From the IMG/VR virus record IMGVR_UViG_3300028833_000094, positions 32,001-96,000 of that record: a stretch of DNA of 64,000 nt; one strand, given 5' to 3'. Position 1 is the stretch's first letter. Each line of letters opens with the position of its first letter. A model generated the notes under the pieces. It was not told the DNA's origin, ran no database searches, and worked only from the letters and a program-made list of their open reading frames with translations. Source of the DNA: a virus. Its lineage: Duplodnaviria; Caudoviricetes. The position numbers were made by a program, and so were the translations under genes. Of this stretch, positions 2,739 through 11,405 are shown one piece after another.

Positions 2739-3424
2739 AATCTTAAAGGGTTAAAGTAGAGTAAAAAGGAAGGAGGACAGCCTAAGGAGATGCTATAATA
2801 AGCATGACTGTCCTTATCCTTCCAGAGAGACTTACTCCTTGTATTTCTTAAAGTAAAAGGAAAGGCAATTGCAAGGCTAAAGTACTTTCATTAATTAATA
2901 AGGGAAGTAAGCCTTGCTTGAGCCTTTCTTGGTTATATATCATTTTCCAGTTAATTGAGAAGTTATACTTTATACCAATGTATTTTGATTCGTATAAGGA
3001 CTCTATTGAGGGGAAATAGATTTGTCTTTTTGTAATAATTCCGTAAAAGGAAAACCAAAAATGAGATTTTCAGGAAATGAAAAGCCCCAAAATACCTTAG
3101 AAATAAGTATATGATATCTATATAGTGTGTAGATAAGGTGAGTGAAAAGTGTTATAGATTATGTGAATATTGAAGATTTGAGAGTCTTGAAAATAATGGT
3201 AAAGTGAGAGGGGAGGGTATTTTGTGTCCTTTTCCTCCACTAAATCATTTAATCTATATTACAAATAGACCATAATATGTTCTTTTTGTACGATTTCAAT
3301 ATTTATCATCTTTTTCTTATTTACACCTTATTATATATATAGAGGGCTAAGTCGATTGTCCCAAGGGCAAAAAATAAAATAAACAGTGGAATTAAGACCT
3401 TGAGGTAAGTCGCAAGGACCCTGA

Positions 3425-6689: not shown

Positions 6690-7039
6690 TATAATTCCTC
6701 CTCAACCTGTTTCTTGATAAAGACAACCTTTGGAACTTCTATGCAGCTAGTCTTAATAAACCGTACTCTGCTAATATCAGAGGCAATAATGTCAATTGTG
6801 GAACTCTCATAATACCCAGCAGGAAATTTCTTATTACCTACTACTGGCTGGATAGTCAGCTTATAAGTGTCCTTACAATATGCTCCAAGAATAGAGCACA
6901 CCTGTTCTTCAGAAAGCCTTGTTTCAAGCAGAGTATCAATAGCTCTCTGCTGTTCATGAGTCATAGGATCCTCATAGGATACCTTAACGATGAAATACTT
7001 TCTTTCCAGTCTCTGTGAATTGAATCTTACTGTAATCAT
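6689..7039 (-). CDS. hypothetical protein
   Basis: 116-aa ORF after TAACCCTTTAA leader. Confidence 0.7.
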   Translation of the reverse strand: MITVRFNSQRLERKYFIVKVSYEDPMTHEQQRAIDTLLETRLSEEQVCSILGAYCKDTYKLTIQPVVGNKKFPAGYYESSTIDIIASDISRVRFIKTSCIEVPKVVFIKKQVEEEL

Positions 7040-7065
7040 GATTTTATTATTTTAAAGGGTTAATA

Positions 7066-7224
7066 CTATTTATTCTTTAAAGGTTTGAACTCAGTGGTTT
7101 CCCACATTTTTCTTTTAAGCTCCCAGTAAGCTCTATAACCTTCTGAGAGTGTAGAAAACTGATGCCTAGTACTAGCTGACATCTTACCAGCTTTCCAATT
7201 CTCGATAAAATTCTTGATTTTCAT
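7066..7224 (-). CDS. hypothetical protein (probable start MKIKN at 7224)
   Basis: ATG follows TAACCCTTTAA leader. Confidence 0.65.
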   Translation of the reverse strand: MKIKNFIENWKAGKMSASTRHQFSTLSEGYRAYWELKRKMWETTEFKPLKNK

Positions 7225-7292
7225 AATTCTGTTTTGTTTTAAAGGGTTATAGTGCAGCTCACTTTGTATAAGGTGGAGCTGCATGACCTTGA

Positions 7293-7454
7293 TTAGTCTT
7301 CAGAATAATCTTCTTCCTTAATCATGTAAGCATGAGTATTCTTCCACTGTGTTTCAATGTAAGACTCAGCTTCTTCTCTAGTCTCAAAAGGCATGTGGTC
7401 CTCAAACCATTTTTCTGTACCTTTCAGTCTGCTGTAAACCTGAAATAGTATCAT
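7293..7454 (-). CDS. 53-aa hypothetical protein (not in ORF track)
   Basis: MILFQVYSRLKGTEKWFEDHMPFETREEAESYIETQW..SED*, starts just after upstream stop. Confidence 0.65.
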   Translation of the reverse strand: MILFQVYSRLKGTEKWFEDHMPFETREEAESYIETQWKNTHAYMIKEEDYSED

Positions 7455-7455
7455 A

Positions 7456-7674
7456 TTACATTCTCATTATTTGAGTAATAGTGAAACTCGTATAGAGCTT
7501 CATCAATCTAACAAACTCTTCCTTAGCAGCCTGCCTATTAGGACAAGTAATCCTAATGTTTGCACTCTTACTGAAGAAGCACACTGAATATGTGCTCTTG
7601 TAATGATTCTCATCTTTACGGATGGTGATGGTAGCACTCTCGGTCTTTACCATCTTATAGCTTCTAATTTTCAT
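7456..7674 (-). CDS. hypothetical protein
   Basis: 72-aa ORF, tightly packed. Confidence 0.65.
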   Translation of the reverse strand: MKIRSYKMVKTESATITIRKDENHYKSTYSVCFFSKSANIRITCPNRQAAKEEFVRLMKLYTSFTITQIMRM

Positions 7675-7675
7675 A

Positions 7676-7870
7676 TTATTTGTTATTTAAATTGTTAGTA
7701 ATAGTTTCATCAATGAGAGCAATCATTCCAGCTCCCAAGAACAGAGTAACAACAACACCATAGATGCTATTGGAGAACAGTGCAGTAATGATAGTAGCCA
7801 TACTGCCAGATACCAGAACAGCTCCCCTGAGGAGAGCTGCCTGTAATGATTTGCTTATAATTCTTTTCAT
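7676..7870 (-). CDS. small membrane protein (2 TM)
   Basis: two hydrophobic segments. Confidence 0.65.
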   Translation of the reverse strand: MKRIISKSLQAALLRGAVLVSGSMATIITALFSNSIYGVVVTLFLGAGMIALIDETITNNLNNK

Positions 7871-7880
7871 ATTATTAAGA

Positions 7881-8261
7881 TTATTCCCAACCCATCATTC
7901 TCGCATGATTGTACCAAGCAAGCTCTTGGGCCATCCATTCTCTGTACTCTTCCTCATATTCCAGGTCATTTATCATTTGCTGGTATGCTTCAGCAGAATA
8001 ATATTCTAACATAGTTTCCATATCAAAGATAGACATACCTACTTCATTACAGAAGTCTACAGCATCTACTCTTTCACAGAAGAGTATTACATCATCAACA
8101 TCCCAGTCAGTACTGTTGTCTTGATAGATAGAAAGAACTGGAATCAGATTATTGCCCTTGACAGCATACTGCACATTGGCAGTGCATTTGTAGGGATTAC
8201 CATTGACCTGCTTAATCAAATCCAGAATAAACTGGTCATCATAATTTGTTAAATTTACCAT
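7881..8261 (-). CDS. acidic hypothetical protein
   Basis: 126-aa ORF, D/E-rich C-terminus. Confidence 0.7.
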   Translation of the reverse strand: MVNLTNYDDQFILDLIKQVNGNPYKCTANVQYAVKGNNLIPVLSIYQDNSTDWDVDDVILFCERVDAVDFCNEVGMSIFDMETMLEYYSAEAYQQMINDLEYEEEYREWMAQELAWYNHARMMGWE

Positions 8262-8536: not shown

Positions 8537-8973
8537 TAGATACAATATTTGAGTGAATAGATAGTCTCATCATAGGCTTCCTGCATCTCAGCGAGGTAAT
8601 CCTGATAGTGTTCCCATTCCCACTCCTTAGAGGGAATATCCCATTCATTACAGGCCTCCTCAAAGGAATGCCCTAATCTCATCCAAGCCTCAATCTGAGG
8701 TCTGTAAGTGAGTGCCCAATGCTCCAGAGATTCATCATTCAGAGTCTGATAGTCAGAGACAAGCAGTCTCATCCAAATCTTATCAACATCCCAGAGTGAG
8801 ATAGAAAGAAGGGAATCTTCAGGGTCATCTACTATTCCACAGCAGTCAGCACCAACTGCTATATCATTGTTGATCATCTTCTGGATAGCTTCCAGAGCTA
8901 CTGTTGCTGGCATGTCATTCCAGCCAAGTTTCTTGACAATCAGCATAATTGCTGAGAACTCTTGTTTGTTCAT
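8536..8973 (-). CDS. acidic hypothetical protein, first gene of the leftward array
   Basis: 145-aa ORF containing GHSFEEACNEWDI, similar to the 38-aa gene at 5214..5330. Confidence 0.75.
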   Translation of the reverse strand: MNKQEFSAIMLIVKKLGWNDMPATVALEAIQKMINNDIAVGADCCGIVDDPEDSLLSISLWDVDKIWMRLLVSDYQTLNDESLEHWALTYRPQIEAWMRLGHSFEEACNEWDIPSKEWEWEHYQDYLAEMQEAYDETIYSLKYCI

Positions 8974-9183
8974 TGCTGTTATTTATTAGGGTTGTGACAG
9001 TCTTTCCTGCCTCAGTAGTTGAGTTTGTAGCATTTGTAGCATTAGTGATGCTTCAGTCTCAGTTGCTGAGGATGAGTAATTCTTTGCTATATTATTACTG
9101 AGAATCAGTCAGTCTGCAAAGACCCAGGGGGGATGAACCCCAACTGTCAAAGACAGGGGGAGGTGTGATATGTTATGACACAT

Positions 9184-9309
9184 CTTTACACATATCTCAT
9201 ATTTTTATCTATTATCTCCCACCTTTACACATACTTTGCATTTTTCCCAAGTCCCCACGCCTTTACACATACCCAATATTTTTTGGAATATCTCCCCTTT
9301 TACACACAT
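9184..9309 (+). repeat. four iteron-like direct repeats (C/T)TTTACACA(T/C)A, about 38-bp period
   Basis: copies at 9184, 9223, 9261 and about 9298, at the point where gene orientation switches. Confidence 0.7.
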
Positions 9310-9393
9310 TCTTCATTCCACTTAGAGCAATTCTTAGCTATAGAACAGTCCAATCTTTTTATAATATTTTTGTGCATTATAAATAGTAGAAGT

Positions 9394-9786
9394 ATGGGAA
9401 ATATAAAGTTGCATAACATGGAAGTAATGGAGCAAGCTAAGTATAGGGCAAGACAAATGGATACTTGGCCTTCTCCATTAGAAGAAAGAATGAAAGAGTT
9501 CTTAGACAGGCACTATGTGGAATATGAGTCTCAAAAGATATTCTATATCTATGCTGATGATGGATGGATAATAAGGTATTATATAGCTGATTTCTATATA
9601 CCAGAGAAAGAGGTTATTATAGAGGTAGATGGTAAGTTCCATGATGAACACAAGCTACATGACAAGAACAGGACTAAGGATATTCAAGAACAGTATCCTT
9701 CTATAGAGGTATTAAGGTATAGGTGGAAAGATTTGTCTGATATGGATAAAATGGATGATCTATTGTGTAGGATAAACGCTATATAA
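9394..9786 (+). CDS. DUF559/Vsr-like PD-(D/E)xK endonuclease
   Basis: YIADFY..IIEVDGKFH..DKNRT..VLRY motifs; ATG 9394 follows TATTTTTG at 9365. Confidence 0.75.
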   Translation: MGNIKLHNMEVMEQAKYRARQMDTWPSPLEERMKEFLDRHYVEYESQKIFYIYADDGWIIRYYIADFYIPEKEVIIEVDGKFHDEHKLHDKNRTKDIQEQYPSIEVLRYRWKDLSDMDKMDDLLCRINAI

Positions 9787-9900: not shown

Positions 9901-10212
9901 ATGAAAGGGTTAAAGGAGTATCTTAGGAAACATGGTAGACACTTTACTGAGGAACTGGCTCATGCTGTCATGGGGAATACTTGGACCTATGATGAGATAG
10001 ATGCCATCATCCAGAAGAAGGTATACTATAATGTTTCTGGTTGTACTAAGGGGGATATAGTTTATTTCTGTAATGGAATGAATTTATATACCAAGCATGA
10101 TATTATAAAGAATGTGATTCCCATGCTTATGACAGTAGATGCCTATGAGGATATATTTACCTTATGGGCCAAAGTATATGGGGATTGCTTTGATTTTACC
10201 AAGTTTGTATAG
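9901..10212 (+). CDS. hypothetical protein, paralog of 55542..55958
   Basis: YLRKHGRHFTEELA..WTYDEID..DIVYFCN vs YLNNYGCHFNKKLC..YTKEQVD..DACYVAN. Confidence 0.75.
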   Translation: MKGLKEYLRKHGRHFTEELAHAVMGNTWTYDEIDAIIQKKVYYNVSGCTKGDIVYFCNGMNLYTKHDIIKNVIPMLMTVDAYEDIFTLWAKVYGDCFDFTKFV

Positions 10213-10261
10213 AATAATTTTCTGTTTTATAATTATTTAAGAAATTTTGTTCAAGTAAAAT

Positions 10262-10292
10262 TTTGGTATTATATTATTAGTTTGTATCTTTG
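10262..10292 (+). promoter_or_regulatory. Bacteroidota housekeeping-sigma promoter
   Basis: TTTG-N19-TATCTTTG. Confidence 0.8.
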
Positions 10293-10296
10293 CAGC

Positions 10297-10722
10297 GACC
10301 CTTGGAAGTAGTAGTTCCATGTTCAGGCTATTAAGGTCCAGTGGATATATAGAGCCTTAGAAGTCGGGTTGTAAGTGCTTATAGCACTGAGATATTCAGG
10401 ATACTCAAGCCCCGATAGGTCAAAAAATGCTTGGTTATAAGTCTGGTGTCCCGCCTAACTACTATGGGAAAGAGGCTGAGGGTAAAGTGGACATTAGGGA
10501 GTTCTAAAGCTTACGAGTTAAGTTTATACTGACCGCCCAGATGAAGTGCCAAGTTAATGAGGTTAGGAAAATCCTTTAGGGACTTCTTATACCTTTTTGA
10601 ATAGTAAAATATCTCAGGCTATGCAGCTGTTGTGAAACACCTGTGTACTTACAAATACTAGGATACAATTTAAAAAGTGTCTTCAAGATAAGAGAGGCCT
10701 AAGTGTAGGCTTCTCTTTCTTT
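10297..10722 (+). ncRNA. candidate large structured ncRNA (about 420 nt)
   Basis: between consensus promoter and terminator, no ORF of 60 aa or more, many nested helices. Confidence 0.55.
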
Positions 10723-10724
10723 AT
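10690..10724 (+). terminator. intrinsic terminator
   Basis: AGAGAGGCCTA-AGTG-TAGGCTTCTCT-TTCTTT. Confidence 0.75.
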
Positions 10725-10796
10725 TTCTTAGCATTATCCTAAGATTCATTGTACCTAAAAGATTGTTTCTTATTTTTGCAACAAAATAAGAAGAAT

Positions 10797-11405
10797 ATGA
10801 ATAAATATTTTATTGCAGCTATAGTGGTTCTCTTTGCTACCATAGGATTTATGTGGAAGCAAGTAAGGGATGCAAATGAGAAATGGAAGGTTTCTGAGGG
10901 TAATGTAAAGGCCTATGCATCCATGTTTGACAATAGCAAGAAACAGAATGCTGCTTTGCTATTGACTGTAGATCAGCTTGAATATTTCAAGGATTCTGTA
11001 CTTCAGGAGCTTGATGCTACCAGGAAGGAACTGAAGGTAAAGGATAAGGACTTAAAGGCTTTACAGCAGGTTAAGTCCAGTTTCTCCAGGACAGATACTA
11101 TTACAATAACCCAGGTGGATACTTTGTTTAAAGAACCCTCCTTGGCTATTGATACTGTATTGGGAGATGAATGGTATAAGCTTAATCTAGGACTTAAGTA
11201 TCCTTCTACGATTGCAGTAAAGCCATACTTTAAGAGTGAGAAACATATCGTAGTCTCCAGTAAGAAAGAGACTGTTAATCCTCCAAAGAAGTTCTTTCTT
11301 TTGAGATGGTTTCAGAAAAAGCATCGAGTTCTTCATATAGATGTTGTTGAGAAAAATCCTTATGTGAGTGATGAAACTAGTAGATACGTTGAGATTATCA
11401 GGTAA
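10797..11405 (+). CDS. membrane-anchored coiled-coil protein, DUF6549/spanin-like
   Basis: N-terminal TM (YFIAAIVVLFATIGFM), coiled coil, C-terminal KKFFLLRWFQKKH..VVEKNPY; promoter TATTTTTG at 10771. Confidence 0.6.
   Translation: MNKYFIAAIVVLFATIGFMWKQVRDANEKWKVSEGNVKAYASMFDNSKKQNAALLLTVDQLEYFKDSVLQELDATRKELKVKDKDLKALQQVKSSFSRTDTITITQVDTLFKEPSLAIDTVLGDEWYKLNLGLKYPSTIAVKPYFKSEKHIVVSSKKETVNPPKKFFLLRWFQKKHRVLHIDVVEKNPYVSDETSRYVEIIR

Follow-up and report, generated by a model that had tools for sequence, protein, structure and literature searches.

The virus record IMGVR_UViG_3300028833_000094 holds, at 10297–10724 on the + strand, what is almost certainly a genuine new structured RNA gene (coordinates are those of the window, the 64,000-nt stretch that was analysed, i.e. 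bases 32001–96000 of this 116,467-bp record). Taken as a whole, the best explanation that we can offer, with a probability of about one half, is a new trans-acting non-coding RNA gene whose product would adopt a clamped fold and play the role of a scaffold or decoy. The source phage, from gut or rumen, is temperate and crAss-like. Phages of this group rank with the most abundant viruses of gut ecosystems and, to our knowledge, almost nothing is known of their non-coding RNAs. With a defined promoter, a terminator and twelve covarying helices, including a long-range kissing interaction between its two domains, the gene provides an unusually complete starting model.

A stand-alone RNA gene

The gene lies in a 585-bp interval, between a 103-codon gene that ends at 10212 and a 202-codon gene that starts at 10797, in which there is no credible open reading frame (ORF). 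Its GC content is 0.44 in the core, compared with 0.28–0.32 in the flanks, in line with the initial annotation, which had described the region as richer in GC than other intergenic DNA. The unit comprises the following elements.

10262–10292, + strand: Bacteroidetes-type promoter, with a −33 box TTTG (10262–10265), a 19-nt spacer and a −7 TAnnTTTG box (read from the sequence)
10297–10724, + strand: RNA gene, about 425 nt, with a conserved core at 10297–10594 (homologues found with nhmmer and a covariance model)
10690–10724, + strand: intrinsic terminator, with a stem at 10690–10717 (12 pairs), a 4-nt loop and a T-run (terminator analysis)

The two promoter boxes, the second of which reads TATCTTTG (10285–10292), are exactly where the initial annotation had placed them, and the terminator that it reported was recovered with its 12-pair stem and T-run. 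The two-box TTTG/TAnnTTTG consensus is the established promoter type of Bacteroides/Bacteroidetes, and both boxes are found at the same distance before helix P1 (see below) in L087, L094, L086/L100, L009, L059 and L148 (labels of this kind denote related loci or homologue contigs). Transcription would start a few bases past the −7 box, at about 10297, and would end at the terminator (10717–10724). The downstream gene has a separate −7 box and promoter of its own. The RNA gene is single-copy in the 116-kb genome, and a covariance model of domain 2 (defined below), run on the window, on 33 related loci and on the phage genome, detected no further copy.

Homologues and their distribution

Homologues were sought around the downstream gene, in collections of viral, metagenome and genome sequences by means of DNA patterns (either exact or with gaps), with nhmmer and with the domain-2 covariance model. 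Ten lineages were obtained, from rumen/gut crAss-like phages, metagenome contigs, Prevotella/Bacteroidales metagenome-assembled genomes (MAGs; n = 3) and a Dokdonia mobile element. They are listed here together with a half copy.

Window, with the near-identical 4-kb contig L001
L087
L094
L086/L089/L090/L095/L100
L009, a complete 123-kb phage
L059/L068/L079/L083/L084/L088/L091/L093, referred to as the L059 group
L105
L140, a Prevotella MAG from goat caecum
L212, a divergent copy at another position of the 108-kb phage that also holds L008
L148, a distant copy in a Dokdonia MAG
L097 (1945–2223, minus strand), the half copy, in a rumen Bacteroidales MAG

The domain-2 model recovered the RNA in 5 of 48 related phage records, including one new divergent copy (L212), and four pattern scans of species-representative genomes recovered it in four species. 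A blastn search (word 11) with the whole unit gave no match among 50,697 GenBank phage records. The 16-mer and 17-mer pattern scans returned mostly chance matches in coding DNA, two relaxed genome scans yielded no member beyond L140 and L148, and a scan with a 17-mer of the promoter leader gave chance matches only, except in L002 and L009. All of the copies found belong to Bacteroidota or to their crAss-like phages.

The copy in L100 is intact and adjoins a rhamnogalacturonan lyase gene, while that in L140 is located between the riboflavin synthase gene and purU, its P1 being broken and its −7 box weak. L097 keeps only domain 2, the 3′ hairpin module and the terminator, and starts exactly at the inter-domain linker. 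The neighbours of the Dokdonia copy (L148) carry AAA_24 and DUF3871 domains, as in mobile elements. Carriers amount to two of the 179 species of the genus of L100 (one of them with a half copy only) and to one of 401 genomes sampled from the family. Because of this sporadic distribution the RNA is not a housekeeping RNA, and a host housekeeping origin was rejected; the chromosomal copies look like sporadic acquisitions, half of which appear to be decaying. The initial annotation had proposed an undescribed phage structured RNA: it is indeed undescribed and structured, but it is not confined to phages, since copies also reside in Prevotella/Bacteroidales chromosomes and in the Dokdonia mobile element. 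For the same reason a packaging RNA, one of the roles suggested at that stage, is unlikely.

Two further features of the bacterial loci may be mentioned. In L140, the distance between the partly decayed copy and a 6S-like Bacteroidales-1 RNA (L140:358–538; 142.7 bits) is 0.7 kb. The L097 fragment is flanked by genes for a superfamily-1 helicase and a restriction-endonuclease-domain protein, a setting that resembles a defence island.

Secondary structure supported by covariation

The single-sequence fold is only slightly better than those of shuffled sequences (z = −1.57, with −1.79 for the reverse strand) and is not significant alone; the case therefore rests on comparative evidence. From eight sequences RNAalifold predicted 59 pairs, 25 of which show compensatory changes. 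When the helices were projected onto a nine-lineage alignment, leaving out a few ambiguous ones (58 pairs), 95.8% of the cells in the proposed pairs formed a standard pair, compared with 30–44% when the partners were slid by 1–3 columns, and 33 of the 58 pairs were changed on both sides, compared with 5–8 after sliding. None of 500 shuffles reached the observed value on any of five measures, and earlier versions of the alignment behaved similarly. The initial annotation had proposed checking its structure by covariation among homologues, and across the ten lineages this covariation is strong. In addition, many of the conserved G–U pairs would be C–A mismatches on the opposite strand, which, together with the promoter and the terminator, fixes the + strand as that of the RNA. 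Twelve helices in all have covariation support, and they are organized as follows.

10297–10421, + strand: domain 1, a four-way junction closed by P1 (10297–10300 with 10418–10421) (covariation)
10303–10319, + strand: domain-1 hairpin, the 7-nt loop of which (10308–10314) is the 5′ kissing partner (covariation)
10325–10357, + strand: domain-1 hairpin with a 23-nt loop, near-invariant in 8 of 10 lineages (alignment, helix 4)
10363–10416, + strand: domain-1 long arm (10363–10368 with 10411–10416), with hairpin 10374–10388 and a variable-length insert (helices 5 and 6)
10422–10428, + strand: A-rich inter-domain linker with an invariant A-run, the boundary of the L097 half copy (alignment)
10429–10554, + strand: domain 2, with nested helices 10429–10435/10548–10554 and 10442–10446/10537–10541, inner hairpin 10453–10455/10474–10476, hairpin 10509–10523 and highly conserved junction strands (helices 7–10)
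10459–10465, + strand: 3′ kissing partner, in the loop of the domain-2 inner hairpin (helix 3, 7 pairs)
10560–10594, + strand: 3′ hairpin module, 10560–10563 with 10591–10594 and inner hairpin 10572–10581 (helices 11 and 12)
10595–10689, + strand: accessory 3′ region with a GUGA-tetraloop hairpin (10624–10643), only in the window, L087 and L009 (alignment)

The helices that had been proposed from the single sequence were all recovered, and most of them (GACC/GGTC, TGGAA/TTCCA, AGGCT/AGCCT, TCGGG/CCCGA, AGTGC/GCACT, CTTGG/CCAAG, TCTGG/CCAGA and GCC/GGC) are kept with compensatory changes. P1, for instance, covaries between A–U, G–U and G–C and from C–G to U–A. The proposed TGTCC/GGACA helix fits all of the lineages and changes from U–A to C–G in L105 and L212, but a rival pairing of the same 5′ bases is preferred by RNAalifold. 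The 23-nt loop of the 10325–10357 hairpin is replaced in L212 and L148, and the 3′ hairpin module is missing from the L059 group. The strands that flank the long arm are the best-conserved sequence of the family, also in the Dokdonia copy. More generally, near-invariant junction strands are found at about 10358–10373, 10405–10428, 10436–10441, 10477–10500 and 10524–10547, and roughly 60 unpaired nucleotides are near-invariant.

The 3′ region beyond the core is not shared by all of the lineages. Segment 10595–10689 is missing from L094, L086/L100, L140, L105, L212 and the L059 group. The GUGA hairpin that had been noted in it is present and nearly identical in the window, L087 and L009, but is conserved only there, and the segment that carries it is for this reason a lineage-specific accessory. 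A 10-bp long-range pair, 10387–10396 with 10608–10617, had also been proposed: it is exact in the window, where it dominates the minimum-energy fold, but it is not conserved, being reduced to 5 bp in L087 and absent in L009. In L009 a tRNA-Met(CAT) gene (L009:2820–2888) lies between the GUGA hairpin and the terminator, inside the unit of the RNA, and to judge from this arrangement the RNA must be released there from a tRNA-containing precursor.

A kissing interaction between the two domains

The long-range kissing interaction is a new finding, beyond what the initial annotation contained. A 7-bp loop–loop helix associates 10308–10314, in a hairpin loop of domain 1, with 10459–10465, in a loop of domain 2, and is 100% paired in nine lineages. 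Four of its positions vary, three of them by two-sided changes: pair 10310:10463 is A–U, G–C, U–A, C–G or G–U depending on the lineage (five types), pair 10311:10462 is G–C or A–U, pair 10312:10461 is U–A or C–G, and pair 10308:10465 is G–U or A–U. Six different loop pairs are found among the nine lineages, all perfectly complementary, and when all column pairs were scanned without bias, the central kissing pair shared the highest number of distinct pair types. In the alignment, this covariation shows that the two loops pair.

Search for known RNA families

No match to the RNA was found in the window with Rfam 15 (4227 families), either at the gathering threshold or at E ≤ 10. Only two tRNAs reach gathering in the window, and the best scores over 10100–10900 are 22 bits, with E near 1, compared with gathering thresholds of 80–115. 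Nine homologue loci scanned against Rfam also gave no match for the RNA at E ≤ 1. The Infernal/Rfam comparison that had been suggested as a check agrees in this respect with the initial annotation, which had recognized no known family.

Proposed mode of action

We propose that the loop–loop kiss acts as an intramolecular clamp that would pack the two domains side by side into a compact particle, with the near-invariant junction strands forming a binding or catalytic core. The RNA would act in trans rather than on a neighbouring gene. No gene common to the phage, Prevotella and Dokdonia contexts was found, so the RNA may be expected to need no dedicated protein encoded next to it. What its invariant junction nucleotides recognize would be a protein or small ligand that Bacteroidota cells have in common, since the family occurs both in phages that infect Prevotella-like hosts and in a flavobacterial element, and these contexts share no neighbouring protein. 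It could serve in this way as a scaffold or a decoy during lysogeny or infection. We hold this combination of an intramolecular clamp and a binding scaffold tentatively, at somewhat less than even odds. A loop–loop clamp inside one RNA is known from the L5–L13 interaction of the cobalamin riboswitch, with which the present RNA shares a covarying loop–loop helix that ties two sub-domains together; riboswitches are, however, 5′ leaders of a downstream gene, whereas this RNA ends at a terminator of its own and its neighbours change.

Several points weigh against the proposal. The covariation of the loops fits an intramolecular and an intermolecular kiss alike. Several of the ten lineages are close relatives, so that some of the covariation counts reflect shared descent. 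One helix of domain 2 has two competing models that both fit all of the lineages, namely 10448–10451/10487–10490 on the one hand and 10448–10449/10535–10536 plus 10450–10452/10480–10482 on the other. Two of the four bacterial-genome copies are damaged (L097, reduced to its 3′ half, and L140, with its damaged P1 and −7 box); this casts doubt on selection in bacteria, and the host-factor target is inferred. The proposal as a whole is inferred from the comparison of sequences.

Alternative explanations

We may wonder whether the kiss joins two molecules rather than two domains of one, giving dimers or closed multimers and an RNA-only particle in which the lineage-specific loops would serve as a self-recognition code. 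Kissing loops reportedly join the subunits in the complexes of the large RNAs ROOL and GOLLD that have been visualized by cryogenic electron microscopy (cryo-EM). The perfect complementarity of the loops in every lineage, with six loop pairs among nine, suits such a code, and the context is that of ROOL and GOLLD, which are ornate RNAs found in phages and prophages and outside them, often near tRNAs or co-transcribed with them, ROOL having first been obtained from rumen data (PMC5737381). The present RNA likewise has phage copies, chromosomal copies and, in the L009 unit, a tRNA; it is of rumen origin, and it is a stand-alone multi-junction RNA with no assigned function, as they are. Cryo-EM structures of ROOL, GOLLD and one more large RNA are reported to be complexes made of RNA only (bioRxiv 10.1101/2024.12.08.627333), and a companion report calls these large RNAs homo-oligomeric (PMC12585600). 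Nevertheless, a short conserved linker connects the different domains to which the two loops belong, and such a geometry suits an intramolecular clamp too. The ROOL and GOLLD covariance models (RF03087 and RF01998, respectively) give no match to the RNA, and no homology to either was found in sequence or structure; its core of about 300 nt is far smaller than their approximately 580 and 800 nt. As far as the available accounts go, ROOL occurs in three phyla and GOLLD in lakes and in Lactobacillales, whereas the present RNA is limited to Bacteroidota and their crAss-like phages. It is thus not a member of ROOL or GOLLD, although in context these two are its closest analogues. All things considered, an intermolecular kiss is unlikely.

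A further comparable system is the phi29-type pRNA, a phage-encoded stand-alone RNA with two complementary loops that covary between phage lineages. The likeness lies in the stand-alone phage RNA and its mutually complementary, covarying loops. The pRNA, however, measures approximately 120–170 nt, is found in phi29-like phages only and acts on the portal, whereas the present RNA is also found in chromosomes without phage genes, and its phage has a large terminase of the ordinary kind; a role in packaging is therefore unlikely.

The RNA could also belong to a new class of ribozymes, with the junction strands as its active site and, for example, itself or a precursor that contains a tRNA as its substrate. 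Catalytic or ligand-binding cores typically have a size, a multi-domain fold and a tertiary clamp like those seen here and, like this RNA with its roughly 60, many unpaired nucleotides that are near-invariant; in addition, a tRNA is embedded in the L009 unit. On the other hand, none of the known ribozyme models gives a score at E ≤ 10, a conserved signature of a cleavage site was not recognized, and the tRNA is present in one lineage only, where host RNase P would suffice for its release. This possibility is in our opinion quite improbable. Small stable RNAs co-transcribed with tRNAs are known from phage T4, namely species 1 and 2, which need host processing enzymes; these are also phage-encoded RNAs that share units with tRNAs, but they are much smaller and simpler, are unrelated in sequence and belong to a phage of another host phylum. 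Whether self-assembling, by an intermolecular loop code that would make it a small cousin of ROOL and GOLLD, or catalytic, with an active site in the junction core, a new class of RNA in either sense is rather doubtful. Should the RNA multimerize or catalyse a reaction, one more member would join the few large functional RNAs that are known from bacteria and phages.

There is only a slight chance that it is a very divergent member of a known family, such as RNase P RNA, transfer-messenger RNA (tmRNA), group I introns or cobalamin-type riboswitches. RNase P deserved the most attention: three short stretches resemble its conserved regions by eye, and a 7-bp candidate (about 10350–10356/10583–10589) for P4, the long-range helix that links conserved regions CR-I and CR-V, pairs in the window and in L087. 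Like type A RNase P RNA, which measures about 350 nt, the molecule has two domains and conserved junction strands, and in L009 it lies directly upstream of a tRNA. Yet the candidate P4 has two uncompensated mismatches in L009 and again in L094, no helix encloses both domains in the way of P1/P2, there is no conserved P4 pseudoknot and no Rfam match, and the occurrence of the RNA in 1 of 401 genomes and 2 of 179 species is sporadic, unlike the universal single-copy distribution of RNase P RNA. For tmRNA, ARAGORN found none in the window or in the homologue loci. A group I intron was rejected because there is no RF00028 match at E ≤ 10 and because the RNA consists of two separately closed domains, bounded by a promoter and a terminator and without exons. 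The absence of tmRNA, RNase P and intron signatures stated in the initial annotation is consistent with the ARAGORN and Rfam results and with the helix topology.

Equally remote is a cis-acting leader or riboswitch, or else a site at the DNA level, such as an attachment site or an origin near the integrase. An integrase gene lies 0.7 kb from the RNA gene and a tRNA-Lys gene 2 kb away (both the integrase domains and the tRNA were checked), L097 is a half copy, L086 differs from L095 by a 4.4-kb insertion right after the terminator, and a GC-skew minimum is found about 1 kb upstream. However, the covariation preserves RNA pairs, including strand-specific G–U pairs. The RNA is not cis-regulatory: its unit is closed by a terminator, a separate promoter serves the next gene, and the neighbours change, the downstream gene varying among lineages; the cobalamin model does not score either. 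The half copy and the integrase had prompted an attP/attB reading, which was rejected because the phage copy is full-length and has a promoter, unlike an attP 3′ fragment, and because the chromosomal copies have no nearby integrase.

Finally, a small protein, encoded either by a 26-codon ATG ORF at 10427 or by a 33-codon TTG ORF at 10431, both of which are present in the window, can practically be dismissed, since most homologues have lost the start codon of the former, its frame is shifted by indels of +1, +2 and −1 nt, and the substitutions compensate pairing without codon periodicity. The 26-codon ORF had been noted in the initial annotation as a possible target of selection, which the homologues do not bear out; judging from the alignment, no conserved reading frame is present among them. 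Stop-codon recoding is common among crAss-like phages. An alternative genetic code was nonetheless rejected, as TAA, TAG and TGA all occur in all six frames of 10200–10800, so that no frame is open under any single stop reassignment.

Genomic context and mobility of the gene

The two ends of the source record (genome positions 1–131 and 116336–116467) repeat each other over 131 bp with 99% identity. This overlap indicates a probably complete genome that was assembled as a circle or has terminal redundancy. The record itself is classed as linear without end repeats. The major head protein has 62–63% identity to proteins of IAS virus and of the uncultured phages cr112_1 and cr106_1, which we take to be crAss-like phages, and a large terminase gene of the ordinary type is present. 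The RNA gene is situated in the lysogeny-proximal region of these temperate phages.

The surroundings of the RNA are variable. A p103 homologue lies upstream of the RNA in the window and in L009 and downstream of it in L087, the order being endonuclease, p103, RNA in the window versus endonuclease, RNA, p103 in L087; this swapped order suggests a shuffling of cassettes. The distance from the RNA to the gp202 homologue is 3.2 kb in L059 and about 40 kb in the L008 phage record. To judge from these comparisons, temperate crAss-like phages pass the RNA around as a small mobile cassette, which would occasionally land in host chromosomes. This apparent movement, together with a slot shared with at least one unrelated structured RNA (described below), suggests that these phages exchange functional RNAs in much the same way as accessory protein genes.

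The slot is seen in the L002 phage, the downstream gene and integrase of which are 84–85% identical to those of the window. The same upstream leader and promoter are followed there by an unrelated ORF-free insert of about 490 nt (L002:2440–2935), which occupies the same position, has no Rfam match and ends in its own terminator; a relative of it is found at L005:588–1071. The locus looks like an exchangeable slot for non-coding RNA cassettes.

Other observations were made in the vicinity. A homing-type endonuclease gene, with DUF559, endonuclease I and HNH PHROG matches, is located just upstream (9175–9786 in the window; L087:939–1274). Roughly 1 kb before the RNA, at about 9000–9400 in the window, the coding strand switches from minus to plus and the cumulative GC skew passes through a local minimum; an origin of replication or divergent early promoters may lie here. 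L086 contains, directly after the RNA terminator, a 4.4-kb segment (L086:9470–13909) with two large genes without Pfam matches, which is absent from close relatives including L095, and several repeats of about 100 nt lie upstream (6900–7920 and 8600–8850). Lastly, L007, L008, L021 and L045, from four further related phages, have ORF-free gaps of 520–890 nt before the gp202 homologue (upstream of position 3001), inside which ARAGORN found no tRNA, and these gaps may hold further non-coding cargo.

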